NCBI RefSeq assembly: GCF_028890115.1
Contig: NZ_JARCJD010000005.1
Location: 145,880 to 209,879, forward strand
DNA: 64,000 nt
Direction of reading: 5' to 3'
Origin: Phaeobacter sp. QD34_24
Lineage (GTDB): Bacteria > Pseudomonadota > Alphaproteobacteria > Rhodobacterales > Rhodobacteraceae
Shown here in pieces: positions 3,008-60,677 of this stretch; within the stretch, counting starts at the first letter, position 1, and every line of letters starts with the position of its first letter. Under the pieces are notes generated by a model. That model saw only the letters and a program-made list of their open reading frames with translations. It was not told the DNA's origin and ran no database searches. The position numbers and the translations under genes are program-made.

Positions 3008-3098
3008 ACGCGCCCGCCGCGCGCCCGCGCGGCGCCGGGCCCAACGGAGGCGACACAGCCCATGGGCTGTGCCAGATCGGGCGGGAGCCGCCCCCTGC
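3008..3098 (+). repeat. REP-like structured intergenic repeat, copy R1
   Basis: GC hairpin ending GCGCGGCGCC, then GGGCCCAACGGAGG, then variable palindrome CACAGCCCATGGGCTGTG, then CAGATCGGGCGGGAGCCGCC. Lies between the convergent MarR and PPK2 genes. See finding 1. Confidence 0.6.
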
Positions 3099-3112
3099 CG
3101 CGTCCCAGCCGT

Positions 3113-5839: not shown

Positions 5840-5987
5840 GGTCCAGCCCCCGTCGTTCAATATCCCTTCTCTTGAAGCAGATACGACTCGGAATTGTAAG
5901 ACAAATAAAAGTCTGCCGCACCCGACCAGATCACCAAGCCCTCCCGCGCCCGCAGATGCGCCGACTGCGTCGCCACCTCTTGGCGGC

Positions 5988-6076
5988 CTTGGGCGTGGCA
6001 GCGCGCAGCGCGCGCTGCCACGCCCAACGGGAGGTGGTCTTTACAAAAAAAAAGGCCGCCGACGGGCGGGAGTACC
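5988..6076 (+). repeat. REP-like structured intergenic repeat, copy R2
   Basis: Perfect 15-bp hairpin GGCGTGGCAGCGCGC-agc-GCGCGCTGCCACGCC, then CAACGGGAGG, then an A9 tract, then GGCCGCCGACGGGCGGGAGTACC. Lies between the GMC start and the lrp stop. Confidence 0.55.
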
Positions 6077-6099
6077 ACCGGGCAAGCGCGAACAGCGAT

Positions 6100-8621: not shown

Positions 8622-9428
8622 ATGGAAGACTTGATCGAACAGGCGGGTGCCTATTGGCCATTGGTGATCAGCTCGGCAAAGGCGCTGGTTGTTCTGGTGC
8701 TTGGCTGGATCGCCACCGGCATGATCAGCACCGCTGTGCGAAGCCGCATCAACAAGACGCCTCAGATCGATCCCACCTTGGGGAATTTCGTGGCCAGCAT
8801 CGTCCGTTGGGCGCTGCTCGCGGTGGTTCTGGTCGCCGTTCTGGGGATCTTCGGCATCGAGGCGACCAGCCTTGTCGCCATGCTGGGTGCGGCGACCCTC
8901 GCCATCGGCCTGGCGCTGCAGGGCACGCTCAGCGATCTGGCGGCAGGCTTCATGCTGATCCTGTTTCGCCCCTACAAGCTTGGCCAGTTTGTCGATATCG
9001 GCGGCACCTCGGGCACGGTGAAGGATCTGAACCTCTTCGTGACCGAACTGGCGACGGCGGACAACGTGCAGATCATCATCCCGAACGGCAAAGCCTGGGG
9101 GTCGATCATCACCAACTATTCGGCGCATGACACCCGCCGCGTGGATCTGGTGTTTGGGATCGACTACAGCGACAGTGCGGACAAGGCCAAGGGGATCATC
9201 CTGCAACAGGCGGCAGCCGATGCACGCGTGATGACAGATCCCGAACCCTGGGTGCGGGTCACCAATCTTGGCGACAGTTCGGTGGACCTGACAGCACGGA
9301 TCTGGTGCAAAGCCTCGGACTATTGGGAGCTGAAATTCGCCATGACTCAAGCGGTAAAGGAAGCCTTTGACGCCGAAGGCATCTCCATCCCCTATCCCCA
9401 CAGCGTCGAGATCAAGAAGGACGAGTAG
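8622..9428 (+). CDS. MscS-family small-conductance mechanosensitive channel
   Basis: Three TM helices, then the MscS beta-domain (VDIGGTSGTVKDLNLFVTELATADNVQIIIPNGKAWGSIITNYSAHDTRRVDLVFGIDYSD). The start could be 8589 (track) or 8622 (MEDLIEQ). Confidence 0.85.
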   Translation: MEDLIEQAGAYWPLVISSAKALVVLVLGWIATGMISTAVRSRINKTPQIDPTLGNFVASIVRWALLAVVLVAVLGIFGIEATSLVAMLGAATLAIGLALQGTLSDLAAGFMLILFRPYKLGQFVDIGGTSGTVKDLNLFVTELATADNVQIIIPNGKAWGSIITNYSAHDTRRVDLVFGIDYSDSADKAKGIILQQAAADARVMTDPEPWVRVTNLGDSSVDLTARIWCKASDYWELKFAMTQAVKEAFDAEGISIPYPHSVEIKKDE

Positions 9429-9429
9429 C

Positions 9430-9505
9430 GCTCCCGCCCGTCTTCGGGGCTGATACCCCTCATCCCGTTGGGCCCAGCGCCCCGCCATTGGCGGGGCGCT
9501 GTCGC
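9430..9505 (-). repeat. REP-like repeat, inverted copy R3'
   Basis: On the + strand it reads GCTCCCGCCCGTCTTCGGGGC...CCCGTTGGGCC + CAGCGCCCCGCCattgGCGGGGCGCTG. This is the reverse complement of the family blocks CGGGCGGGAGC / GGCCCAACGGG plus a 12-bp hairpin. It starts immediately after the mscS stop. Confidence 0.55.
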
Positions 9506-9554
9506 ATTCCACTGCATCCTTGTGGACATGGCAACCGTTCAGAAATGGCGCAAC

Positions 9555-9625
9555 CGCGCCGAGCGCCCGCGCGGCGCCCGGCCCAAGGCTGTAATCTGTC
9601 GCCAAAGGCGCAGGTTCAGGGGCGG
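9555..9625 (+). repeat. REP-like repeat, copy R3
   Basis: GCGCGGCGCCCGGCCCAAGG ... GGTTCAGGGGCGGGAGCACTCC. Forms an inverted pair with R3'. Confidence 0.5.
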
Positions 9626-10155
9626 GAGCACTCCGTGACCCGGCTCATCACAAGCGTCTGCTTTCCCTGATAGATGGCAGCCTGTTCCCGCACCCTGTAA
9701 CCCAATTTCAAGGCCACCTTTTGCGACACGGCATGCGCCGGATCAAACAGGCAGACAGTTTCAGCCCAATCCTTGGCTGCATCGGCCCAGTCATGCATTG
9801 CGGTCACCGCCTCGCCCGCGATGCCGCGGCCATGGGCATGAGTCGCAAGGACCCAGCCCGCCTCGGGGATCACCGCAAGCGGCGGGTCTATTTCACGTTT
9901 GAAATCGGAAAACCCAACTTCGCCGAGAAAATCGCCGGTCGAACGCTCTGTTACCGCCCAATACCCATAGCCCATGGCCTGCCAATGACCCATGTTGCGC
10001 AGAAGACGCGACCAGGAGGCCTCGGGCGTGGACGGCACGCCACTGATGTGCCTGACCACCACCGGATCTGCCCAGAGCGCGGCAACATCGGGGAAATCCT
10101 CCACCCGGTGCGGGCGCAGGATCAGCCGCTCGGTCTCGAGGATCACATCGCTCAC
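9616..10155 (-). CDS. GNAT-family N-acetyltransferase (RimJ/RimL-like)
   Basis: 179 aa: MSDVILETERLILRPHRVEDFPDVAALWADPVVVRHI..., a GNAT fold. Its start overlaps the stop of the upstream YtoQ gene (ATGA), so the two are co-transcribed. Confidence 0.75.
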   Translation of the reverse strand: MSDVILETERLILRPHRVEDFPDVAALWADPVVVRHISGVPSTPEASWSRLLRNMGHWQAMGYGYWAVTERSTGDFLGEVGFSDFKREIDPPLAVIPEAGWVLATHAHGRGIAGEAVTAMHDWADAAKDWAETVCLFDPAHAVSQKVALKLGYRVREQAAIYQGKQTLVMSRVTECSRP

Positions 10156-12347: not shown

Positions 12348-14744
12348 TCAGCCGCGCAGGCTGCCGCCAGTGGCCTTGGTCACCTTGGCAATGATCTTCT
12401 CGCTCACCGCCTCGATGTCCTTTTCCTTCAGCGTCTTGTCCACGGGCTGCAGGCGCACTGTGATGGCCAGGGATTTCTTGCCCTCGCCCAGGCTGCCACC
12501 GATGAATTCGTCAAAGACGCGCACATCCTCGATCAGGGCCTTGTCGGCACCGGCTGCGGCATTGACCAGGGTCAGCGCCTCGACGCCCTCATCCACCACA
12601 AAGGCAAAGTCACGCTCGACCGCCTGCAGGTCGCTGATCGCCAATGCGGCGCGGGTGGCCCCCGCATTGCGCGGCAGCGGCACCTCGTCGGGCCAGATGG
12701 TGAAGCCCACCGCCGGACCCTTGACGCCCATTTCGCTCAGCACCTTGGGATGCAGCTCGCCAAAGACGCCCAGCACCTTTTTCGGCCCCAGGCAGATCTT
12801 GCCGTGGCGGCCCGGATGCCACCACCCCTGCGCGCCGCGCAGGATCTGAACCTTGGCCGGGGCAGCGATGGCGGCCAGAACCGCCTCGATATCGGCCTTG
12901 GCATCGAATGTGTCCACGGGACGCGAGGCGCCATGCACATCCTTGGCACCGGTGCGTCCGACCAAGAGACCAGAGATCAGGTTGTGCTGCTCCCCCGGCT
13001 CCCCGCCATGAAAGGCCGGGCCGACTTCGAACAGAGCCAGGTCCATATAGCCGCGCGCCTGGTTGCGGGCGGCGGCCTGCAACAATCCCGGCAGCAGGGC
13101 GGGACGCATATGGGACATCTCGGAGGAGATCGGATTGGCCAGCATGGTTGCATCGTCACCGCCACCGAACAGCGTGGCCGAGGCCTTGTCGATGAAGGTG
13201 TAGCTGACGATTTCATTGTAGCCGAGGCTGGCCGCGGTGCGCCGGGCCATCTGTTGGCGGCGCTGCTGCGGGGTCATAACCGGTTTCGGAATGCCCGGCG
13301 TCAGACGCTTGAGCGGCTTGCCTTCCAGTTTCGTCAGCGAGGCGATACGGGCGACCTCTTCCACCAGATCGGCCTCGCCCTGAACATCGGGGCGCCAGCT
13401 GGGCACATGGGCCATGTTGCCCTCAAGCCGGAAGCCAAGGCGGGTCAGGGTCTGGCGCTGATCGCTTTCGGGGATATCCATGCCGACCAGCGACTGCACT
13501 CGGCTTGCGTCCAGCTTGTAGGCGCGCGAATGATCCGGCACGTCGCCTGCGATCACCACTTCAGACGGCTCACCGCCACAGAGGTCGAGGATCATCTGGG
13601 TGGCGCGATGCAGCCCTTCCAGGGTGAATTCCGGATCCACGCCGCGTTCGAACCGATAGCGCGCATCCGAGTTGATCTTGAGCGCGCGGCCGGTGGTCGC
13701 GATCTGCACGTGATCCCAGAAGGCGCTTTCGAGGAAGACATCGACGGTCTCCTCGGTGCAGCCGGTTTCCTCGCCGCCCATGATGCCGGCGATGCTTTCG
13801 GGGCCATTGGCGTCCGAAATCACCATCTGGCCCGCGCCAAGGGTGTATTCCTTCTCATCCAGCGCCAGCAGGGTCTCGCCGCCCTTGGCGCGATGAACCC
13901 GCAGATCGCCCGTCACCTTGGCTGCGTCAAAGACGTGCAGCGGGCGGTTCTGGTCGAAGGTGAAGAAGTTGGTGATATCCACCAGCGCCGAAATCGGGCG
14001 CAAGCCGATGGCGGTCAGCCGATCCTGCAGCCACTGCGGGCTGGGGCCATTCTTGACGCCCTTGATCAGGCGGCCGGTGAACAGCGGGCAGCCGTCCAGC
14101 GTGTCTTCGTCGATGGTGACCTTGATCGGGCTTTCGAAATCGCCGGGGATCGCCTCGTATTCGCGGGTTTTCAGCGTGCCCAGACCACGGGCCGCCAGAT
14201 CGCGGGCAATGCCGTAGACGCCCAGCGCATCGGGGCGGTTCGGGGTGATGGCAATCTCGATCATCGGATCGACCTTGGAGGGGTCGTTTTCCGCCAGCCA
14301 GTCGATCAGCCGGTCGCCCACCTCGCCCGAAGGCAGTTCCACGATGCCGTCGTGATCCTCGCCCAGCTCCAGCTCGCGCCAGGAGGCCATCATGCCGTGG
14401 CTTTCGACGCCGCGGATCTTGCCCACCGACAGGGTGATATCAAGGCCGGGCACATAGTCGCCGGGTTTGCACAGAACCACGGTGATGCCTTCGCGCGCAT
14501 TGGGGGCGCCGCAGACGATCTGCTTTTCGCCCTCGTTGGTCATCACGCGGCAGACACGCAGGCGGTCGGCATCGGGGTGCTGCTCGGCGCCCACGACCTT
14601 GGCCAGGGTAAAGCCTTTCAGCGCATCGGCCGGGTTCACGATCTCTTCGACCTCGAGGCCGAGATCGGTGAGGGTTTCGGCGATCTCCGCGACAGAGGCA
14701 TCGATGTCGAGGTGGTCTTTCAGCCAGGAGAGGGTGAATTTCAT
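12348..14744 (-). CDS. pheT: Phenylalanine--tRNA ligase beta subunit
   Basis: 798 aa: MKFTLSWLKDHLDIDASVAEIAETLTDLGLEVEEI... with tRNA-binding, B3/B4, B5 and FDX-ACB domain order. Confidence 0.95.
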   Translation of the reverse strand: MKFTLSWLKDHLDIDASVAEIAETLTDLGLEVEEIVNPADALKGFTLAKVVGAEQHPDADRLRVCRVMTNEGEKQIVCGAPNAREGITVVLCKPGDYVPGLDITLSVGKIRGVESHGMMASWRELELGEDHDGIVELPSGEVGDRLIDWLAENDPSKVDPMIEIAITPNRPDALGVYGIARDLAARGLGTLKTREYEAIPGDFESPIKVTIDEDTLDGCPLFTGRLIKGVKNGPSPQWLQDRLTAIGLRPISALVDITNFFTFDQNRPLHVFDAAKVTGDLRVHRAKGGETLLALDEKEYTLGAGQMVISDANGPESIAGIMGGEETGCTEETVDVFLESAFWDHVQIATTGRALKINSDARYRFERGVDPEFTLEGLHRATQMILDLCGGEPSEVVIAGDVPDHSRAYKLDASRVQSLVGMDIPESDQRQTLTRLGFRLEGNMAHVPSWRPDVQGEADLVEEVARIASLTKLEGKPLKRLTPGIPKPVMTPQQRRQQMARRTAASLGYNEIVSYTFIDKASATLFGGGDDATMLANPISSEMSHMRPALLPGLLQAAARNQARGYMDLALFEVGPAFHGGEPGEQHNLISGLLVGRTGAKDVHGASRPVDTFDAKADIEAVLAAIAAPAKVQILRGAQGWWHPGRHGKICLGPKKVLGVFGELHPKVLSEMGVKGPAVGFTIWPDEVPLPRNAGATRAALAISDLQAVERDFAFVVDEGVEALTLVNAAAGADKALIEDVRVFDEFIGGSLGEGKKSLAITVRLQPVDKTLKEKDIEAVSEKIIAKVTKATGGSLRG

Positions 14745-14894: not shown

Positions 14895-14975
14895 GAGGCC
14901 GCCCGGGTGGGCGCAACGCGCCCGCCATGGGGGCGGGCGGGCGCGTGCCGAGCCGCAAGCGGCCCGGTCGAACTA
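14895..14975 (+). repeat. Degenerate REP-like repeat, copy R4
   Basis: GGGCGCAACGCGCCCGCC-atgg-GGGCGGGCGGGCGCG hairpin region, loosely related to the family. Lies between the pheT start and the orphan gene stop. Confidence 0.3.
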
Positions 14976-15395
14976 TTCGAACCGAAGGAACCTCAAATCA
15001 ACGTCATGTGTTTCGAGACCAAGCTCGTTCCGAAGCTCATTACGTAGTGCAATCAGCACCGGCTTAATATCGGCATGACCAGCATTCGCCACAAAGCCAC
15101 CAATGCTCTCATGCGCCGCCCGGCAAACATCTTCTGAACCAAACAGCTGAATATCTGCCAATGCCCCTTCCATGTTTTCGCGTAGTTGCTTCGCTTGCTC
15201 GTCGTCTGACGGTTTTCGTTCAACACACGCCTCCAATCGACGATAGGCATCAATCAAGAAATCCACATTGCGTGCACGCTTCTCGGAAATCAGTTCTTTG
15301 CGGATTGAAGTTTTGAAAACAATCAAAGATCCAATAATGGCAAAAAGCGGGGGAACAAAGAGGTTAAGCAGCGTAATGAGTGTATCAGAATCCAT
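14973..15395 (-). CDS. Orphan hypothetical membrane-anchored protein with atypical low GC, inserted between pheS and pheT
   Basis: 140 aa from MDSDTLITLLNLFVPPLFAIIGSLIVFKTSIRKE...: one N-terminal TM helix plus a helical soluble domain. GGGGAAGGTG RBS. Visibly AT-richer (~47% GC) than the flanking pheS/pheT (>62%). No recognised family. Confidence 0.5.
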   Translation of the reverse strand: MDSDTLITLLNLFVPPLFAIIGSLIVFKTSIRKELISEKRARNVDFLIDAYRRLEACVERKPSDDEQAKQLRENMEGALADIQLFGSEDVCRAAHESIGGFVANAGHADIKPVLIALRNELRNELGLETHDVDLRFLRFE

Positions 15396-15469
15396 AGCAC
15401 CTTCCCCAAAAAGCAAAAAGGGCACTCTTAGCGAGCACCCCCTTATCAATTCCGCGTGTTATGTGTGTG

Positions 15470-34947: not shown

Positions 34948-35023
34948 GGGGCCTTAGCTCAGCTGGGAGAGCGCCTGCATGGCATGCAGGAGGTCAGCGG
35001 TTCGATCCCGCTAGGCTCCACCA
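34948..35023 (+). tRNA. tRNA-Ala (anticodon GGC)
   Basis: GGGGCCTTAGCTCAGCTGGGAGAGCGCCTGCATGGCATGCAGGAGGTCAGCGGTTCGATCCCGCTAGGCTCCACCA. Cloverleaf with 7-bp acceptor stem, anticodon loop AT-GGC-AT, T-loop GGTTCGATCC and an encoded CCA. Confidence 0.9.
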
Positions 35024-40181: not shown

Positions 40182-40235
40182 CACTTTCCCTGTGGGTCAA
40201 GGAGGCCGCAAGGCCCCGCCGTCAGGCGGCGTGTC

Positions 40236-40405
40236 CTTGACGCACGCATTAAAACAGACTCGCACAGGGCCCTTGAGGGGCAAAGCTGCCCCTTAAGGGC
40301 CATCTCGGCAAAAGGAAACGCCGCGCGTCAGCGCGGCGCCAGGCCCAACGGGAGAGGGGTAATCTGCAGATTGCCCCGATCCGGGCGGGAGCACCCCGCC
40401 CACGG
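40236..40405 (+). repeat. REP-like repeat, extended copy R5
   Basis: CCTTGACGC...TTGAGGGGCAAAGCTGCCCCTTAA (hairpin) ... CGCCGCGCgtcaGCGCGGCGCCAGGCCCAACGGGAG + palindrome GGGGTAATCTGCAGATTGCCCC + GATCCGGGCGGGAGCACCCCGCCC. Lies between the convergent GNAT and arsP genes. Confidence 0.6.
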
Positions 40406-40411
40406 GATAGC

Positions 40412-41443
40412 TCACAGCATCTGAAACAGGATGCCAGACAGGATCGCGCCACTCACGCCCAATATCAGATAGGTGGCAAAGACCTGCGGCTTGACCAGCG
40501 ACCAGACCGCCGCCATCGCCGGGATCGAACTCACCGCCCCTGCAATCATGAAGGCCATGGCCGCACCGGCACTCATCCCCTGCTCCACCAACCCCGCCAA
40601 CAGGGGCGGCGCCACATAGGAGTTGAGATAGGCAGGCATCCCCACCAGGGCTGCCACGGCAATCGGGCCGACCCCCTCGCCGCCGACGAGACCGGCGATC
40701 ATATCCGCAGGCACGTAAGACACCAAGAGCGCCTCCAGCACATAGGCCAGCGCCAGCCATTTCAACAGGAACAGACCGTTTGACACAAACTCTCTGCGGA
40801 ATGTCTCACGGCGGGCAGCTTCCCCCCAAAAGGCCCAGACCGGCTTGGCATCCAATTTCGGAGCGCCGCAGCCGCAGCAGCTGGATTTCTGCACCTGCTT
40901 CAGCGGATTTGCGAATACCCCATAGCCCATCAGCGCCTTGATCGCAAAACCGCCGAACAGGCCCAGCCCCACGGCAGCTACCGCCTTGCCAATGGCAAAG
41001 GGCCAGCCCAGCGCCCCGGCGGTGATCAACAGGGTCGGCGGATCGATCAGCGGCGAGGACAGCCAGAAGGCCATCACCGCCGACAGGGGGGCGCCCAGCG
41101 CCAGGAGACCGGCAATGAAGGGGATCACCTCGCAGGAACAGAAGGGCGCCAATCCCCCGAACATCGCCGCCAGGACAATCATCCGCACCTCGCGCCCCTC
41201 AAAGGCGCGCGCCACCATGGTCTCGGCGCCGGTTGCTTTTAGATAGGACAAAAGCAGCACGGCAAAGAGGATATAGCGCCCCGTGTGTGCAAGGGCCTTC
41301 AGCGCAAATGTGACCACGGTCTGAAAATTCCCCGGATCCAGCAGGGCCACCGCAACAAGCAGCAGCGCGCTCAGCGTCCAGGGCGTCTTCAGCCAGCGCA
41401 TCGCCTGTTGCGAGGCACTCGGGTTTTGAGTGAGATCAGCCAT
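40412..41443 (-). CDS. arsP: ArsP-type permease (PF03773/DUF318, putative organoarsenical efflux)
   Basis: 343 aa; 8-10 TM helices with the ArsP-type FCSC motif (GGLAPFCSCEVIPF) and a second Cys cluster (SSCCGCGAP). Its start overlaps the arsR stop by 8 nt. Confidence 0.7.
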   Translation of the reverse strand: MADLTQNPSASQQAMRWLKTPWTLSALLLVAVALLDPGNFQTVVTFALKALAHTGRYILFAVLLLSYLKATGAETMVARAFEGREVRMIVLAAMFGGLAPFCSCEVIPFIAGLLALGAPLSAVMAFWLSSPLIDPPTLLITAGALGWPFAIGKAVAAVGLGLFGGFAIKALMGYGVFANPLKQVQKSSCCGCGAPKLDAKPVWAFWGEAARRETFRREFVSNGLFLLKWLALAYVLEALLVSYVPADMIAGLVGGEGVGPIAVAALVGMPAYLNSYVAPPLLAGLVEQGMSAGAAMAFMIAGAVSSIPAMAAVWSLVKPQVFATYLILGVSGAILSGILFQML

Positions 41444-41747
41444 CGTTCGCGGCCTCCCGTTGTTGATCCGAACAGCATTCGCTGAGGATGAAATCTGCCA
41501 GCTGTCTGAGGCGGGTGAAATCGGCCCGGTTCAGTGTCGCACGACCCATCTTTTCCTGAATCACGACCCCCGCCCCTGCCAGAAACTTCAGATGATGCGC
41601 CAGGGTCGAGGGCGGCAAACCGGTCCGCTCCTGCACCTCCTGCACCATCAGGCCCGACTGGCCTGCCCGAATAAGACAGCGCAGAACCTTGAGCCGCGCC
41701 TCGGATCCCATGGCCGCAAAACCGCTGGCCGCTTCTTCCCATTCCAT
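41436..41747 (-). CDS. arsR: ArsR/SmtB-family metalloregulator
   Basis: 103 aa; HTH (ARLKVLRCLIRAGQSGLMVQEVQERTGLPPSTLAHHLKFL) and a C-terminal CC pair (ECCSD). Confidence 0.8.
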   Translation of the reverse strand: MEWEEAASGFAAMGSEARLKVLRCLIRAGQSGLMVQEVQERTGLPPSTLAHHLKFLAGAGVVIQEKMGRATLNRADFTRLRQLADFILSECCSDQQREAANDG

Positions 41748-41871: not shown

Positions 41872-43329
41872 ATGGCCATTTCCGTCGATACCTTCTTCCT
41901 CAATCCAGATGCCCAAGGCACCCTGCAGGCGCAGATCCAGGAGATGATCGCCGAAGGTGTTCTGTCGGGGCGTTTCCGGATCGGAGAGAAACTGCCCTCG
42001 TCGCGCAAACTTGCCAGCCACCTGGGGATCAGCCGCATAACGGTGACGCTGGCCTATACGGAACTGCTGGCCAATGACTACCTGACCTCGCGCGGACGGT
42101 CCGGGTATTATGTCTCGGAAAGCGCTCCCATCCCCCCCAGCTACACGCCACCACAAAGCTCGAATGATGCGGTGGATTGGTCCAAGGCGATCGCGCAGAG
42201 CTTTACCGGCGGCGACACCCCGCACAAACCGCAGGATTGGCGCAGCTACCGCTACCCCTTCATCTACGGACAGGCCGATCCGGCCCTGTTTGATCATGCC
42301 AACTGGCGGCTCTGCGCCTTGCGCGCCCTGGGCCAGAAGGATTTCTCCGCGCTTACCAATGACTATTTCGATCAGGACGACCCCTTGCTGATCGAATATA
42401 TCGCCCGCCACACCCTACCCCGCCGCGGTGTCATCGCCAGGCCGGAGCAGATCCTGATCACCCTCGGCGCCCAGAACGCGCTTTGGCTTACGATCCAGCT
42501 GCTGCTCAACCGGGGGCGCAAGGCCGCGATCGAGGATCCGACCTATTACACGCTGCGCGACCAGCTTGCCCATATGCGCTGCCAGATGGACTGCATCCCG
42601 GTGGACGGTGACGGCCTGCCGCCTGACGAGATCGCAGAGGACACCGACGTGATCTTCTGCACCCCCAGCCACCAAAGCCCCACCACGGCAACCATGCCCA
42701 TGGCCCGGCGCAAGGCACTGTTGCAAAAGGCCCATGACATTGACGCCGTGATTGTCGAGGACGACTACGAATTCGAGATGTCCTTTCTCGGCGCCCCTTC
42801 GCCCGCGCTGAAATCCCTCGATACGGAGGGGCGGGTTGTCTATATCGGCAGCTTCTCCAAATCGCTGTTTCCCGGGCTGCGGCTGGGCTATCTGGTCGGC
42901 TCGGAGGCCTTCATTCGCCAGGCCCGCGCCCTGCGCGCCAGCGTCCTGCGCCACCCGCCCGGGCATATCCAGCGCACCGTCGCCTATTTTCTGTCACTGG
43001 GACATTACGACTCACAAATCCGCCGGATGGCGAAAGAGTTGCACAACCGGCGCCTGGTGATCGAGGAGGCCGTCGCCACCCACGGGCTGGAGATCTCGGG
43101 AGTCGGGGTCTATGGCGGCTCTTCCCTGTGGATGCGCGCACCCGACGGGGTCGATACCGTGACCGCTGCAAAGCACCTGAAGGAAAAGAGCGTCATCATA
43201 GAGCCGGGCGCCCCCTTCTTCTCGGCTGATCACCGTCGCAACAATTATTACCGCCTCGGCTATTCGTCCATTCCCGCAAACCGCATCGAACCCGGCCTGG
43301 CCTTGCTGGGCGAGGCCCTGCGGGCATAG
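41872..43329 (+). CDS. tauR: MocR-subfamily GntR regulator with aminotransferase-like domain (TauR-type)
   Basis: 485 aa; N-terminal winged HTH (LPSSRKLASHLGISRITVTLAYTELLANDYLTSRGRSGYYV) and a fold-type-I PLP domain. Sits immediately upstream of xsc. Confidence 0.8.
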   Translation: MAISVDTFFLNPDAQGTLQAQIQEMIAEGVLSGRFRIGEKLPSSRKLASHLGISRITVTLAYTELLANDYLTSRGRSGYYVSESAPIPPSYTPPQSSNDAVDWSKAIAQSFTGGDTPHKPQDWRSYRYPFIYGQADPALFDHANWRLCALRALGQKDFSALTNDYFDQDDPLLIEYIARHTLPRRGVIARPEQILITLGAQNALWLTIQLLLNRGRKAAIEDPTYYTLRDQLAHMRCQMDCIPVDGDGLPPDEIAEDTDVIFCTPSHQSPTTATMPMARRKALLQKAHDIDAVIVEDDYEFEMSFLGAPSPALKSLDTEGRVVYIGSFSKSLFPGLRLGYLVGSEAFIRQARALRASVLRHPPGHIQRTVAYFLSLGHYDSQIRRMAKELHNRRLVIEEAVATHGLEISGVGVYGGSSLWMRAPDGVDTVTAAKHLKEKSVIIEPGAPFFSADHRRNNYYRLGYSSIPANRIEPGLALLGEALRA

Positions 43330-43380
43330 CACCGCCCTTATTCGGCAGCCCTCCCGCGCCTTTGCCCCGCATTCAAGATG

Positions 43381-43470
43381 CGCGGCAAAGCCTTGGGCGT
43401 GGCGCCGCGCAGGGCGCGGCGCCACGCCCAACGGGAGCAATGCATCTTGGATGCAGAGGCGACGGGCGGG
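43381..43470 (+). repeat. REP-like repeat, copy R6
   Basis: GGCGTGGCGCCGCGC-agg-GCGCGGCGCCACGCC (15-bp stem) + CAACGGGAGC + palindrome AATGCATCTTGGATGCAG + AGGCGACGGGCGGGAGCGCACC. Starts just after the tauR stop. Confidence 0.6.
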
Positions 43471-43514
43471 AGCGCACCGACACCGGTTTCACGCGTTTTC
43501 GGCACCCGGAAATT

Positions 43515-43546
43515 CTGGCCCTACTCGCATAATAAACTGGCCCTAA
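43515..43546 (+). promoter_or_regulatory. Candidate TauR operator upstream of xsc: direct repeat CTGGCCCTAC-n12-CTGGCCCTAA (22-nt register)
   Basis: Two near-identical decamers exactly two helical turns apart, ~80 nt upstream of the xsc start in an AT-richer promoter-like stretch. Confidence 0.45.
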
Positions 43547-43627
43547 CCCACCCTCGCGCGACAGCCTAAACCGGAGATAATGTCCGGCGTCTGTCGGCTC
43601 TGTCTGCGTTGCATCAGGAGCACCCAC

Positions 43628-45406
43628 ATGAAAATGACCACCGAGGAAGCCTTTGTTAAGACCCTGCAAATGCACGGGATTGAACATGCTTTCGGGATTA
43701 TCGGATCCGCCATGATGCCGATTTCGGATCTCTTCCCCAAGGCAGGCATTACCTTCTGGGACTGTGCGCATGAAGGCAGCGCCGGCATGATGGCCGATGG
43801 CTACACCCGCGCCACCGGCAAGATGTCGATGATGATCGCCCAGAACGGCCCCGGCATCACCAACTTCGTCACCGCCGTAAAGACCGCCTATTGGAACCAC
43901 ACGCCGCTGCTGCTGGTCACCCCCCAGGCCGCGAACAAGACCATCGGCCAGGGCGGCTTCCAGGAAGTCGAACAGATGAAACTGTTCGAGGACATGGTCG
44001 CCTACCAGGAAGAGGTCCGCGATCCCTCCCGCGTGGCCGAAGTGCTGAACAGGGTGATCATGCAGGCCAAACGTGCCTCGGCCCCGGCACAGCTGAACAT
44101 TCCGCGCGATATGTGGACGCAGGTGATCGACATCGAACTGCCCGCCATCGTCGAATTTGAACGCCCCGCCGGTGGCGAAAGCGCTCTGGCCCAGGCCGCG
44201 GACCTACTGTCCAACGCCAAGGCCCCGGTGATCCTGAATGGTGCTGGCGTGGTGCTGTCCAAGGGCGGTATCGCTGCCTCGGGCGCATTGGCCGAACGCC
44301 TGGATGCGCCGGTTTGCGTCGGCTACCAGCACAATGACGCCTTCCCCGGCTCGCACCCCTTGTTTGCAGGCCCGCTGGGCTACAACGGCTCCAAGGCGGC
44401 GATGGATCTGATCAAGGAGGCTGATGTCGTTCTGTGCCTTGGCACCCGGCTCAACCCCTTCTCGACCCTGCCGGGCTACGGGATGGAATACTGGCCGACC
44501 GAGGCCAAGATCATCCAGGTCGACATCAATCCCGACCGTATCGGCCTAACCAAACCCGTCACCGTGGGCATTGTCGGCGATGCGGCCAAGGTCGCAACCG
44601 CCATCCTGAACCAGCTGAGCGACAGCGCCGGAGATGAAGGTCGCGATGCGCGCAAGGCCAAGATCGCCGAGACCAAGTCCCGCTGGGCGCAGCAGCTCAG
44701 CTCGATGGACCACGAGGATGACGATCCCGGCACCACCTGGAACCAGCGCGCCCGCGCCGACAAGCCGGACTGGATGAGCCCCCGCATGGCCTGGCGCGCG
44801 ATCCAGTCGGCGCTGCCACGCGAGGCGATCATCTCCTCCGACATCGGCAACAACTGCGCCATCGGCAACGCCTACCCGTCCTTCGACGAAGGCCGCAAAT
44901 ACCTGGCGCCCGGCCTGTTCGGCCCCTGCGGCTATGGCCTGCCTGCCGTGGTCGGCGCCAAGATCGGCTGCCCGGACGTGCCGGTCGTCGGCTTCTCAGG
45001 TGACGGCGCCTTCGGCATCGCAGTGAACGAGCTGACGGCGATTGGCCGCGATGAATGGCCTGCCGTCACCCAGGTGGTCTTCCGCAACTACCAATGGGGT
45101 GCGGAAAAGCGCAACTCGACCCTGTGGTTCGATGACAATTTCGTCGGCACCGAGCTGGATCAGCAGGTTTCTTACGCCGGGATCGCCAGCGCCTGCGGGT
45201 TGAAGGGCGTCGTCGCCCGCACCATGGACGAGCTGACCGCCGCCCTTACCCAGGCGGTCGAGGATCAGAAGAACGGCATCACCACCCTGATCGAGGCAAT
45301 GATCAACCAGGAGCTGGGCGAACCCTTCCGCCGCGACGCGATGAAAAAGCCGGTTGAAGTCGCGGGCATCTCCGCCGACGACATGCGCCCGCAGCAGGTC
45401 GGCTGA
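43628..45406 (+). CDS. xsc: Sulfoacetaldehyde acetyltransferase (ThDP-dependent)
   Basis: ~592 aa from MKMTTEEAFVKTLQMHGIEHAFGIIGSAMMPISDLF...; ThDP-binding motif GDGAFGIAVNEL...N. AGGAG RBS 7 nt upstream. Start trimmed from the track ORF. Confidence 0.85.
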   Translation: MKMTTEEAFVKTLQMHGIEHAFGIIGSAMMPISDLFPKAGITFWDCAHEGSAGMMADGYTRATGKMSMMIAQNGPGITNFVTAVKTAYWNHTPLLLVTPQAANKTIGQGGFQEVEQMKLFEDMVAYQEEVRDPSRVAEVLNRVIMQAKRASAPAQLNIPRDMWTQVIDIELPAIVEFERPAGGESALAQAADLLSNAKAPVILNGAGVVLSKGGIAASGALAERLDAPVCVGYQHNDAFPGSHPLFAGPLGYNGSKAAMDLIKEADVVLCLGTRLNPFSTLPGYGMEYWPTEAKIIQVDINPDRIGLTKPVTVGIVGDAAKVATAILNQLSDSAGDEGRDARKAKIAETKSRWAQQLSSMDHEDDDPGTTWNQRARADKPDWMSPRMAWRAIQSALPREAIISSDIGNNCAIGNAYPSFDEGRKYLAPGLFGPCGYGLPAVVGAKIGCPDVPVVGFSGDGAFGIAVNELTAIGRDEWPAVTQVVFRNYQWGAEKRNSTLWFDDNFVGTELDQQVSYAGIASACGLKGVVARTMDELTAALTQAVEDQKNGITTLIEAMINQELGEPFRRDAMKKPVEVAGISADDMRPQQVG

Positions 45407-59629: not shown

Positions 59630-59682
59630 GGCGCGCGTTTCTGCTGTGCTCCGGGTCAAGGGAGGCGCAGCCTGCGCGCATC

Positions 59683-59850
59683 GCGCGCCTTGCCCTTGAC
59701 GCGAAGCGCAACCCCCACAATCGGGATCGCGCTTTTGAGGGGCAGACCTGCCCCTCAAAACGCTTCTCAGCCCCTTTTGCGCCGCGCAGCGGCGCCGGGC
59801 CCAACTGGCAGCGTCATATTCGCAGAATATGGCCCGGCAGGCGGGAGCCC
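59683..59850 (+). repeat. REP-like repeat, extended copy R7
   Basis: CCTTGACGC...TTGAGGGGCAGACCTGCCCCTCAAA (hairpin) ... CGCCGCgcaGCGGCGCCGGGCCCAACTGGCAG + palindrome CATATTCGCAGAATATG + GCCCGGCAGGCGGGAGCCC. Lies between convergent genes. Confidence 0.6.
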
Positions 59851-59855
59851 TTCCG

Positions 59856-60677
59856 TCAGGCCCCTTCAGCCGTGGCACTCATGCATTGCCGCCCATCGGG
59901 GCCGCGCACCCATAGATCATTCCCGTTGCGGCAGAAGGTAGCTGTTTCAAAATGCATCAAGGGGGAAGAGGCCCGGAAGGAAAACCGCTTCAAGGGGCCG
60001 ATCACCTCTTCCGCCAAAAGCATCAGTTTCTGCGCCAGCAGGGGGCCATGCACCACCAGCCCCTCATAGCCCTCCACATCGCGCGCATAATCGAGATCAT
60101 AGTGGATCCGGTGCCCGTTGAAGGTCAGCGCCGAGTAGCGAAACAGCAGGGTCGAGGAAAACATCTCCTCCCGTGCATCAGTCTCATCCTGACGCGCCTC
60201 AGGCGCAATCGGCTGTTGCGCCGCCGGATCAGGATCCTCCCGATAGACCAGATCCTGCCATTCCGTCAGACACAGCCGCCCCTCCTGCCAAACCTCGTGC
60301 CGCAGGGTCACAAAGGCCAGCGGTCCGCTGCGCCCCTCTTTGTGTTCCGCGCGCTCCAACACCGAGTGTTTCTCGGCCCGGATCCCGGCGCACAAAGGCG
60401 CATCGAACTGCAAACGACCACCCGCCCACATGCGGCGCGGCAAGCCCAGGTCGGGGATCAACCCGCCAGCCGCACCCACGCGCGGATGGCCATCCCGCCC
60501 CAGACATTCAGGCGGCTGGGGCGCCCAGAAGTAGAGCTGATGGAAAAACGGCGGCAAGGGGCTGCCTGCGCTGATCGTCGCCTGCCGCCCCAGCGCCACC
60601 TCAAAGGCAGCGGCGCGGGCGGGATCCATTACGTCGCTCTGACGCTCTTCGGTCGGGGTATCTGGCTGCTCTGTCAT
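59856..60677 (-). CDS. MaoC-like/hotdog-fold dehydratase family protein (double-hotdog, HTD2/mesaconyl-CoA-hydratase-like)
   Basis: 273 aa; N-terminal MaoC_dehydrat_N-like half and a C-terminal hotdog half (GYEGLVVHGPLLAQKLML). Confidence 0.55.
   Translation of the reverse strand: MTEQPDTPTEERQSDVMDPARAAAFEVALGRQATISAGSPLPPFFHQLYFWAPQPPECLGRDGHPRVGAAGGLIPDLGLPRRMWAGGRLQFDAPLCAGIRAEKHSVLERAEHKEGRSGPLAFVTLRHEVWQEGRLCLTEWQDLVYREDPDPAAQQPIAPEARQDETDAREEMFSSTLLFRYSALTFNGHRIHYDLDYARDVEGYEGLVVHGPLLAQKLMLLAEEVIGPLKRFSFRASSPLMHFETATFCRNGNDLWVRGPDGRQCMSATAEGA

Follow-up and report, generated by a model that had tools for sequence, protein, structure and literature searches.

A family of small hairpin-rich repeats with conserved blocks and covarying stems at gene ends in Rhodobacteraceae

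The described repeats closest to the sequences studied here are the REPs, in which the stem is conserved together with a 5' GTAG-type tetranucleotide, the BIMEs (bacterial interspersed mosaic elements) of E. coli, whose classes are defined functionally by the binding of IHF, gyrase or Pol I, and the RIMEs (Rhizobium-specific intergenic mosaic elements) of the Rhizobiaceae. The sequences flagged in a 64,000-nt stretch of DNA from Phaeobacter sp. QD34_24 (the window) are members of a real family of small hairpin-rich repeats at gene ends of Rhodobacteraceae (Roseobacter group), and this family is apparently undescribed. Each unit consists of a GC-rich hairpin (HP1), the sequence GCCCAACGGGAG (block A), a variable hairpin (HP2), the sequence CGACGGGCGGGAG (block B) and a pyrimidine-rich tail, the conserved parts lying between the hairpins and the stems themselves being variable.

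As in the REP/REPIN systems of Enterobacteriaceae and Pseudomonas, these are short extragenic palindromic units present in many copies at gene 3' ends and in convergent spacers, occurring as singlets and as inverted doublets of fixed orientation (the doublet being a duplicated unit), with strand-specific stem mismatches and a long vertical persistence. However, in this family the stems vary at nearly every position with compensation, and conservation resides in blocks A and B, outside the stems. Moreover, divergence among the copies of one genome is much greater, and a pair combines two distinct arm types. REP/REPIN systems also include a cognate RAYT gene, which encodes a Y1 HUH transposase and usually has the repeats on its flanks; no RAYT was found in the DNA searched (element-bearing loci and PLSDB replicons). 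With BIMEs and RIMEs the family shares a mosaic of palindromic unit types in alternating orientation, conserved linker motifs, a restriction to one bacterial family and optional modules, represented here by the 5' extension of a long variant and by recombined HP1 and HP2 subtypes. In contrast to BIMEs and RIMEs, it is the linker motifs and not the palindromes that are invariant, and we know of no sequence similarity between them and the present family. The likeness to MITEs (Correia of Neisseria, ERIC/IRU) concerns the length of 120-210 bp, the imperfect terminal inverted repeats of ~19-25 nt (CTCCCGC... plus tail) and the ability to fold as a single long hairpin, to supply terminators and to overlap gene ends, here the final codons of a GNAT gene; the differences are that no target-site duplication was seen and that the copies are deeply diverged, with compensatory stem evolution. 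To our knowledge, no parent insertion sequence has the ends of this family. We lean, with little more than even confidence, towards a lineage-specific, non-coding, non-autonomous and mosaic repeat family of the REP/BIME/REPIN kind.

Two covariance models, R1 and R2, were used. R2 retrieved nine units, distributed over six intergenic regions of the window, with E values of 2e-13 to 4.5e-6, the following match having an E value of 0.68. Either short block by itself is not beyond chance in this 63% GC window (8 matches vs 4.1 expected), but the combined architecture of both blocks and the hairpins is. The sequence-only reading had listed eight loci with a common architecture, which holds for seven of them, and both models detect these seven far above the background; the eighth, 14895-14975, regarded as a degenerate member, reached only 5.9 bits with R1 (E=6) and is missing from the R2 matches. 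Its count of seven plus-strand copies and one inverted copy has to be revised, since the copies at 5988 and 43381 also hold a minus-strand arm (5919-6028 and 43328-43432) and those at 9430 and 9555 likewise form an inverted pair. All six regions are intergenic and located at gene 3' ends, as proposed (Pfam-checked genes). Further copies do exist outside the window: the exact two-block pattern was found at no fewer than 120 loci, and the organism-named records are all Rhodobacteraceae genera or MAGs, a few MAGs being labelled merely Pseudomonadota or Alphaproteobacteria. In a search of the window with Rfam 15 at gathering thresholds, tRNA alone passed and the repeat family had no match, the SorY, SorX, ar7, twister and HDV-like families included, and a literature search by sequence string and keywords gave no description of it.

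Two types of arm can be distinguished, GCCCAACGGGAG-HP2-CGACGGGCGGGAG (type 1) and GCCCAAGGCCG...-HP2'-GCGGGYGCGGGAG (type 2), and HP1 and HP2 subtypes have been recombined between copies. The two conserved blocks, and stems that differ from copy to copy yet stay paired, are present as first described. The idea that the blocks are single-stranded can be kept only in part, since GCCC(AA) of block A is the partner of an upstream (TT)GGGC in many copies, and GGGCGGG of block B forms a stem (HP3) with the pyrimidine tail. Similarly, the 3' half-stem GCGCGGCGCC, thought to be common to HP1, characterizes one HP1 subtype, and several others exist. The tail 3' of block B is made of C/T, with A at ~1-8%; T is mildly enriched after HP3, with T-runs there in some units.

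A single type 1 unit is found on the plus strand at 3014-3100 (R2 40.5 bits, E 4.5e-6), between a MarR gene (+, end 2997) and a PPK2 gene (-, stop 3113). It comprises HP1 (~3015-3034), block A GCCCAACGGAGG (3039-3050), HP2 (3054-3071) and block B CGGGCGGGAG (3078-3087), which pairs with a CCGCCC tail in the fold. The region 5919-6094, next to an Lrp/AsnC gene (stop 6100), is an inverted pair with one common palindromic HP1 at ~5989-6027 (R2 76.9 bits on the plus strand and 43.6 bits on the minus strand). Its right arm is of type 1 (+), with block A at 6022-6033, HP2 at 6033-6060 and block B at 6063-6072, and its left arm is of type 2 (-, 5919-6028) with the terminal sequence GCGGGCGCGGGAG. An A9 run was believed to replace HP2 in this copy; folding shows that it belongs to HP2, GGUGGUCUUU/AAAGGCCGCC with two U.G pairs. 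On the minus strand, CCGCCCGTCGGCGG followed by T9 forms a canonical terminator for the Lrp/AsnC gene (terminator scan; site 6069-6056). The inverted pair at 9409-9650 has separate HP1s (R2 67.7 and 47.4 bits): block B of the type 1 arm (-, 9409-9509) begins 1 nt past the MscS stop codon (9426-9428), and the terminal GGGGCGGGAGC (9619-9629) of the type 2 arm (+, 9546-9650) overlaps the final codons of the GNAT gene 9616-10155 (-). In the pair at 43328-43494 (R2 79.3 and 50.5 bits; common HP1 at ~43393-43431), the left, type 2 arm (-, 43328-43432) abuts the stop of a GntR/aminotransferase gene at 43329, the right arm is of type 1 (+, 43392-43494), and the HP2s of both arms are mutual inverted copies (GCATTCAAGATGC / GCATCTTGGATGC). 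Folding also confirmed the perfect stems of 15 bp or more reported at ~5991-6023 and 43396-43428.

The flagged locus, 40190-40413 on the plus strand (an R2 match), is a long variant that occupies the entire spacer between a GNAT (+) and an ArsP (-) gene. Its 5' extension (40196-40307) contains the small hairpins GGCCGCAAGGCC and GCCGTCAGGCGGC, the motif CCTTGACGC and the hairpin GAGGGGCAaagcTGCCCCTT (40275-40293), and is followed by a type 1 unit (40308-40413) with HP1 at 40319-40338, block A at 40343-40354, HP2 at 40356-40377, block B at 40382-40391 and HP3 up to 40401, the ArsP stop being at 40412. HP1 together with TTTCCTTTT on the minus strand is scored as a terminator of ArsP (site 40340-40317). 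Orthologues of this locus were found in L060, L026, L123, L124, L125 and L130. The second long variant, at 59650-59869 (+, R2 53.8 bits), lies between a DAO oxidoreductase gene (+, end 59629) and a dehydratase-like gene (-, stop 59856). It has the same 5' extension (GGGTCAAGGGAGG..., CCCTTGACGC and the hairpin GAGGGGCAgaccTGCCCCTC at 59737-59755), in agreement with the upstream module said to be common to the 40236 and 59683 copies, and, at 59769-59869, a type 1 unit that has diverged (block A GCCCAACTGGCAG, block B CAGGCGGGAG). The motif CTTGAC-N12-CNCACAAT of the long variant is conserved in the orthologues and in one paralogue, and this promoter-like module is present only in the rare long variant (~5 of ~150 units).

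Covariation was analysed in 143 units from 100 sources (the window plus 99 exact-pattern loci), representing more than 40 Rhodobacteraceae genomes. In this set, 95% of the stem cells pair, compared with 68.5% in shuffles; 522 stem cells were changed on both sides vs 127 in shuffles, and compensatory changes were found in 16 of the 17 pairs, far above the shuffled and slid controls. The mismatches in the stems are strongly asymmetric, with 92 G.T vs 15 A.C and 49 G.A vs 9 C.T, and the large excess of G.T over A.C indicates that one specific strand folds. An independent scoring based on Watson-Crick pairs only gave the same direction (27 vs 8), and G(N)NA loops are found on the folding strand. 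For the 40300 unit, the fold has an energy of -55.5 kcal/mol (z -5.3) vs -49.2 kcal/mol (z -2.1) for the complement. The wobble asymmetry is seen whatever the arrangement of the flanking genes, even in units that are antisense to the genes on both sides (13 vs 4), and it is therefore a property of the element and not of local transcription; a transcription-coupled mutation bias behind the G.T excess was rejected because the asymmetry is equal in all gene contexts. At the orthologous sites L049 and L058, the blocks are invariant and the stems completely different. Covariation and strand-specific wobble pairs strongly support the structure.

Units form 29 head-to-head pairs and no tail-to-tail pair, a pair usually consisting of one arm of each type, and 16 of the 29 have a single common HP1. 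The ends of the pairs are terminal inverted repeats, CTCCCGC...GCGGGAG, with inverted tails (GGGGKG/CMCCCC or GATCTCG.../...CGAGATC). A whole pair of ~210 nt is duplicated with 92% identity on two contigs of one genome (L015/L019), the similarity ending at the CTCCCGC/GCGGGAG termini plus a short tail, and in another pair of paralogues (95% identity) the stem differences are compensated. The ends of 28 pairs and three boundaries of paralogues were free of direct repeats that could represent a target-site duplication, although old copies could have lost such repeats. The replicating element would then be an imperfect palindrome of ~120-210 bp, in which two inverted arms flank one or two central HP1, with CTCCCGC...GCGGGAG as its putative termini and a short tail after each; single units would be halves that have lost the partner arm by decay or never had one.

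The family is patchy. Among 80 unselected orthologous metagenome loci (530 kb), 3 carry units, 5 in total, and the remaining loci have compact spacers, ordinary terminators or decayed remnants. At 43381, some lineages have a filled site, others a collapsed copy or a remnant, and in others the site is empty, with an operator directly after the stop codon. The spacer at 40300 contains the long variant in some lineages, the bare unit in others, and elsewhere a bidirectional terminator of the ordinary kind. Several units have been retained at the orthologous position in different genera, where the flanks are only 74-79% identical, both members of each comparison having been ascertained through the exact-block pattern. 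The element has become widespread and has been maintained in high-GC Rhodobacteraceae, and units are also carried by PLSDB replicons of Tritonibacter, Ruegeria and Leisingera (mostly ~0.8-1.3 Mb). As for gene context, 58 units are convergent, 19 + 19 tandem and 10 divergent, and these counts fit an independent avoidance of gene 5' ends on both sides. The tandem contexts show no orientation bias (19 co-oriented vs 19 anti-oriented). Of 132 units, 92 have their terminal block directed towards the stop codon of a convergent gene (median distance 27 nt), and the other 40 have it directed towards a gene start. The element lodges in short spacers at gene 3' ends, and this is why the terminal block lies within ~30 nt of a stop codon.

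Several readings of these data have to be weighed. That no family exists, the hairpins being generic GC-rich terminators and their short common motifs an effect of composition, would explain why each block alone is barely over chance in the window. It is refuted by R2 scores down to E 2e-13 with a clean gap to the background, by the at least 120 exact two-block matches, in which every organism-named record is Rhodobacteraceae, and by covariation well in excess of both kinds of control, and its probability is negligible. A less extreme view, which we regard as rather unlikely, is that the units are structured RNA motifs kept in place by selection. Transcription of the GCCCAACGGGAG strand would result from read-through that enters at the far side of the spacer or, in the long variant, from a promoter of its own, and the transcript would fold into HP1, HP2 and HP3; a conserved RNA-binding protein or nuclease would bind the conserved blocks, and the RNA could be a 3'-end stabiliser, a terminator/insulator against antisense entry into the convergent gene, or a cis-antisense RNA to its 3' UTR. 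The strong covariation, the G.U tolerance of one strand, tandem G.A pairs, GCA/GAA/GCAA loops and the invariant blocks with wholly different stems at L049 vs L058 point in this direction, and indeed G.U tolerance, GNRA-type loops and tandem GA are equally expected of RNA under selection. Moreover, in pairs the well-folding arm is on the 3' side of each strand, as convergent read-through transcripts would contain, CTTGAC-N12-CNCACAAT is conserved in the long variant, and T-runs follow HP3 in some units. However, the tandem contexts are balanced, the asymmetry remains where neither neighbour transcribes the folding strand, most related genomes manage with ordinary terminators and do not have the family, arms are decayed or deleted in some lineages, whole pairs have been duplicated to new sites, there is no Rfam family match, and the promoter-like module is confined to a handful of units.

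The reverse strand has also been considered. Specialised terminators arisen in place, intrinsic or Rho-dependent, would serve the abutting gene through the minus-strand reading, in the order stop codon, C-rich blocks CUCCCGCCCG and CUCCCGUUGGGC, GC-rich HP1; we judge this improbable. The short distance between the terminal block and the stop codon, the canonical minus-strand terminators of two window copies (40340-40317 and 6069-6056) and the bidirectional terminators at empty orthologous sites fit with it, but the wobble and G.A asymmetry places the folding on the opposite strand and 40 of 132 units face a gene start and not a stop. The family does not conform to an intrinsic terminator (a GC-rich hairpin and then a U-tract): only 9 of 137 units have four or more A among the 8 nt that precede HP1, which would correspond to a minus-strand U-tract, although two window copies qualify. 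This reading is also favoured by the resemblance of the 40300 minus strand to the 3' half of the SorY sRNA of Rhodobacter (Cereibacter) sphaeroides (RF02651, PMC4615379), with a hairpin, CCUCCC-GUUGG, a terminator hairpin and a U-run. This match is weak (25.1 bits vs a threshold of 111), concerns the strand that does not fold according to the wobble evidence, and did not recur for other copies in three permissive local Rfam searches, which gave SorY at best. Of the original proposal of a functional RNA or a REP/MITE element, the second branch is well supported, by the many Rhodobacteraceae copies, the inverted pairs with terminal repeats, the duplication of pairs, the presence, absence or decay at orthologous sites and the 3'-end preference, whereas a discrete sRNA or terminator family is not supported by orientation or U-tracts.

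The mobile-repeat reading itself meets objections. The persistence of several units at corresponding sites in different genera is closer to what selection in situ would leave, although the exact-block ascertainment of both members qualifies this. The stems of copies that share a genome have diverged far beyond those of classical REPIN or MITE populations, target-site duplications could not be seen, and no RAYT match was obtained: tblastn with E. coli RayT and IS200 TnpA as queries gave 0 matches in 121 element-bearing sequences (0.98 Mb) and no Rhodobacteraceae match in PLSDB. RAYTs have been reported to be rare in Alphaproteobacteria (PMC5581495). The genes located between two units, GcvH-like in L022 and hydroxyisourate-hydrolase-like in L098, do not appear to be transposases, as judged by inspection of their translations alone. 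Single units show no replication-strand (GC skew) bias (41 vs 45), which would contrast with an IS200/IS605-type single-strand transposition. Within the mobile-repeat reading, the conserved blocks at the feet of the variable hairpins may be recognition sequences for a trans-acting factor, and the element would pass through, or act as, a single-stranded form (RNA or ssDNA) of the GCCCAACGGGAG-reading strand. Copies would provide the host with 3'-end hairpins, some of which may have been turned into the terminator of the neighbouring gene, and the rare long variant may be an independent small transcript.

Other candidates were discarded. A helix between GCCC of block A and GGGC of block B, proposed by RNAalifold, is invariant, and the variants in L123 and L130 lack compensation. 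For a small ORF, GGGAGGAG is followed by ATG in one subfamily only and the ATG is not conserved; for a G-quadruplex, the conserved G-tracts number only three. HDV-like, twister and ZTP ribozymes or riboswitches gave no Rfam signal, and HP1 is a long perfect hairpin, unlike HDV P3/L3. HP1 is not the target's own terminator hairpin, with A-HP2-B alone being mobile, because HP1 subtypes are common to several loci and whole pairs are duplicated. Integron attC sites are imperfect hairpins with 5'-RYYYAAC ... GTTRRRY-3' ends in promoterless cassette arrays; the family has a RYYYAAC match in GCCCAAC, but its boxes come in the opposite order (GTTGGGC...GCCCAAC), and there are no cassettes, the neighbours being housekeeping genes in mixed orientation.

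More speculatively, and with low probability, the units could be a novel class of structured nucleic-acid motif, abundant at tens to hundreds per genome, that is not selfish DNA and whose invariant blocks (GCCCAAC-GGGAG, GGGCGGGAG) dock a dedicated Rhodobacteraceae factor. This factor might be an RNA-binding protein or nuclease that determines where mRNAs end and protects convergent genes against read-through in antisense. It might also be a non-RAYT enzyme that copies the element via a single-stranded RNA or DNA intermediate, in which case the family would be comparable to SINEs or REPINs, as a bacterial system with a new partner.

For the evolution of such repeats, the family is exceptionally clear: covariation, wobble asymmetry and the bias in the loops reveal a single-strand constraint of defined polarity together with free evolution of the stems, the reverse of classical REPs. 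This raises a sharp and testable question, namely what factor recognizes the conserved blocks and whether it does so on RNA or on ssDNA. The Roseobacter group (Phaeobacter, Leisingera, Ruegeria, Tritonibacter, Tropicibacter, Dinoroseobacter) includes major marine model organisms, and a REP-like family seems to be new for it according to Rfam and the searched literature. The family offers natural markers for strain typing. It also explains a good share of otherwise unannotated spacers in these genomes and affects the calling of gene ends, as with the final codons of the GNAT gene and the terminators.

Each unit of the family consists, from 5' to 3', of a GC-rich hairpin (HP1), block A (GCCCAACGGGAG), a copy-specific hairpin (HP2) and block B (CGACGGGCGGGAG), followed by a pyrimidine tail. 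Either block by itself is within chance in a window of 63% GC: block A, allowing ≤2 mismatches, gave 8 matches against 4.1 expected. Since the short blocks alone did not exceed chance, we built two covariance models, R1 from an alignment of five diverse copies of other genomes (A5) and R2 from 143 matches. Run on the window with all filters off, R2 detected nine units in six spacers (E-values 2e-13 to 4.5e-6; next match 0.68). Single units lie at 3014-3088, 40308-40413 (the 40300 unit, within the flagged locus) and 59769-59869, all on the plus strand, and paired units at 5919-6028 (-) with 5988-6094 (+), 9409-9509 (-) with 9546-9650 (+) and 43328-43432 (-) with 43392-43494 (+). Seven of the eight loci grouped by the sequence-only reading align over ~90 nt in this order, with an HP2 differing copy by copy as it had described. 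The eighth, 14895-14975, taken for a degenerate copy, was rejected as a member (E=6 with R1, no R2 match), and the tally of seven plus-strand copies and one inverted copy overlooked the minus-strand arms at 5919 and 43328. The A9 run thought to replace HP2 in the 5988 copy in fact belongs to HP2, GGUGGUCUUU/AAAGGCCGCC, which contains two U.G pairs. The 14895-14975 spacer, located upstream of pheT (12348-14744, -) with an uncharacterised ORF (14973-15449, -) on its other side, carries GC-rich nested hairpins (GGGCGCAACGCGCCC, GCCCGCCATGGGGGCGGGC and GCCGCAAGCGGC) that look like an ordinary terminator or attenuator.

Further copies were found well beyond the window. Searching GTDB, with each species represented by a single genome, for the exact pattern GCCCAACGGGAG-N15-40-CGGGCGGGAG yielded at least 120 loci. 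Among the matches listed, all organism-named records are Rhodobacteraceae, of the genera Leisingera, Phaeobacter, Pseudophaeobacter, Ruegeria, Falsiruegeria, Tropicibacter, Tritonibacter, Epibacterium, Dinoroseobacter, Tropicimonas, Gemmobacter, Pararhodobacter and Rhabdonatronobacter, together with a few MAGs labelled only Pseudomonadota or Alphaproteobacteria. Units also occur on plasmids or chromids of Tritonibacter, Ruegeria sp. TM1040 and Leisingera, replicons mostly of ~0.8-1.3 Mb. The distribution is patchy: in 80 unselected metagenome loci (530 kb) coding for orthologues of the 41872-43329 regulator (66-89% identical in amino acids), we found five units, confined to L123-L125 (83% identity).

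Orthologous sites were compared in related loci, designated by L-numbers, including the Pseudophaeobacter MAG locus L060, which is 83% identical to the window over 6.7 kb. The 40300 unit occupies the same site in the window, L060, L026, L123, L124, L125 and L130; changes in HP2 are wobbles or are compensated, while block A shows some drift (GGGAG, GGAAG, GGGTG, GGGCG). At this site L131, L132 and L134 have an ordinary bidirectional terminator (A-run, hairpin, T-run) in a spacer of ~60 nt. The 43381 pair differs between lineages: the window and L060 have it intact, L123 an expanded form, L130 a collapsed one and L124 just a terminal remnant; unrelated sequence takes its place in L026, L121 and L122, and L127, L128 and L131-L135 lack it, the stop codon there being followed immediately by the putative downstream operator. 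Several other units are common to different genera, with flanks 74-79% identical and entirely different stems, a comparison that overstates conservation because both members were picked by the exact-block pattern.

Stems that vary while remaining paired had been proposed, and covariation is indeed observed. In a 143-unit alignment, 95% of stem cells hold standard pairs (shuffles, 68.5%; slid partners, 24-49%); compensatory changes affect 16 of the 17 pairs, and 522 cells are altered on both sides versus 127 in shuffles. Mismatches are asymmetric in this alignment (G.T 92 vs A.C 15; G.A 49 vs C.T 9), the G.A cells appearing mostly traceable to a tandem G.A that recurs in one HP1 subtype, CCGAGC/GCGAGG. 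As the alignment was fitted to the model, we repeated the mismatch count on the 123 exact-pattern copies with a separate hairpin finder that accepts Watson-Crick pairs only, which gave G.T 27 vs A.C 8, the loops on the G.T-rich strand being mainly G(N)NA (GCA, GAA, GCAA, GYCA). The 5-7 nt 3' of block B are C or T, with A almost absent; pairing of this stretch with GGGCGGG can create a third hairpin (HP3), whose register varies. Folding energies are -55.5 kcal/mol (z -5.3) for the 40300 unit and -49.2 (z -2.1) for its complement. Together, these asymmetries of mismatch, loop, tail and fold indicate that the constraint to fold, whether as RNA or ssDNA, acts on the strand reading GCCCAACGGGAG. 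The mismatch asymmetry is equal under every orientation of the neighbouring genes (13 vs 4 in units antisense to both), which rules out local transcription-coupled mutation as its source. In L123 (~1859-1963, orthologue of 40308-40413), GGAAG replaces GGGAG in block A and block B alike; this single case could reflect a concerted change, with one partner reading both blocks.

Among 100 sources searched, 29 head-to-head pairs and no tail-to-tail pair were found. In 16 of the 29, one common palindromic HP1 runs through GTTGGGCC...GGCCCAAC, and the other arm of a pair generally belongs to a second type, GCCCAAGGCCGYYRRSG...GCGGGYGCGGGAG; the full element is thus an imperfect palindrome of ~120-210 bp with termini CTCCCGC...GCGGGAG. 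One subfamily (L051, L084, L018, L022, L090) has a longer terminal inverted repeat, ...CGAGATC / GATCTCG..., and no CACCCC tail. HP1 and HP2 subtypes are combined differently from copy to copy, so the family is a mosaic. In Tropicibacter sp. R16_0 a whole ~210-nt pair is present on two contigs (92% identity), the similarity stopping at the termini and a short inverted tail, and Falsiruegeria mediterranea has two copies 95% identical whose stem differences are compensated. No target-site duplication was seen at the pair ends or paralogue boundaries examined. The additional upstream module noticed in the 40236 and 59683 copies is present, and this different left part recurs in their orthologues and in one L030 copy; it comprises two small hairpins, CTTGAC-N12-CNCACAAT and a hairpin GAGGGGCA-nnn-TGCCCCTC. 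Its motif CTTGAC-N12-(C/A)C(C/A)CA(A/C)AAT, conserved in the window (40240-40270, 59700-59730), L060, L123, L124, L130 and L030, has a sequence and spacing that we take to resemble a putative sigma-32 (RpoH)-type promoter directed into the unit.

The suggested placement at gene 3' ends agrees with the window, whose flanking genes were checked with Pfam: all nine units are in spacers, and in seven the terminal block is at most ~26 nt from the stop codon of a gene reading towards the unit. The abutting genes encode PPK2, Lrp, MscS, GNAT, ArsP, a GntR-type regulator and a dehydratase-like protein. In the 9546 arm (9546-9650), the terminal block GGGGCGGGAGC, within 9616-9629, coincides with the final four codons of the minus-strand GNAT acetyltransferase gene (9616-10155), whose product ends in ..ECSRP; the repeat appears to supply the C-terminus and stop codon of this gene. 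A small ArsR/HTH_20-type regulator gene (41436-41747; 697-1008 in L201) extends over the beginning of the ArsP-family permease gene, which hints that the two form an operon with the flagged unit at its 3' end. Between the GntR/MocR-type regulator gene (41872-43329) and a TPP-enzyme gene (43580-45406), a direct repeat, TCTGGCCCTA...ACTGGCCCTAAC (43520-43565), is kept in most of ~15 orthologous metagenome loci inspected and is probably the regulator's operator.

Across genomes, a crude GC3 gene caller placed 58 units between convergent genes, 19 in tandem antisense, 19 in tandem sense and 10 in divergent contexts, as expected if both sides avoid gene 5' ends independently, with no preferred orientation relative to transcription. 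Of 132 units, 92 have their terminal block turned towards a convergent stop codon (median 27 nt), with no conserved junction motif; spacing on the other side is loose. Singlets show no GC-skew bias (41 vs 45). This placement is most simply explained by palindromic pairs lodging in short 3' spacers, singlets being pairs whose other arm decayed or was replaced. The family as a whole does not represent canonical intrinsic terminators. Of 137 units, only 9 have an A-run ahead of HP1, and the enrichment of T behind HP3 is mild. In two copies of the window, however, segments of the unit do form a canonical terminator for the gene they abut when read on the opposite strand. For ArsP this is HP1 followed by UUUCCUUUU, an arrangement conserved in three genera; for Lrp (5988 copy) it is CCGCCCGUCGGCGG followed by U9.

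No Rfam 15 family matches the units, and no description of the family was found in the literature searched by sequence string and keywords. A SorY match (25 bits, minus strand of one copy) was far under threshold and did not recur in others; the sole Rfam family above threshold in the window is a tRNA gene at 34948-35020 (+; 61 bits). The units come closest to REP/REPIN, BIME/RIME and MITEs, which taken together share with them a position outside genes at 3' ends, a mosaic organisation, terminal inverted repeats, fixed-polarity inverted doublets as the duplicating unit and occasional use as terminators. However, the units differ in having conserved parts outside the stems, two arm types per pair, deeply diverged copies with compensatory evolution and no target duplication seen. 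They also differ in that no RAYT or IS200-type gene was found in 0.98 Mb of element-bearing DNA or in Rhodobacteraceae plasmids, using tblastn with IS200 TnpA and a RayT query 100% identical to E. coli rayT; RAYTs are reported to be rare in Alphaproteobacteria (PMC5581495).

The main rival is that the units are a truly functional RNA motif whose structure a conserved factor would read. It draws support from the invariance of the blocks and from wobbles and loops of RNA-like character, but we consider it rather unlikely: units lack an orientation bias, are patchily distributed, decay and are duplicated as whole pairs, all of which favours a repeat element. The best-supported reading, to which we give somewhat better than even chances, is that the units are a Rhodobacteraceae-specific, non-autonomous, REP/BIME/REPIN-like mosaic repeat whose single-stranded form is recognised at blocks A and B. 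Such a repeat would propagate and persist via this form, through recognition at the two blocks, would settle at gene 3' ends and may now and then be co-opted as a terminator, possibly as a small transcript.
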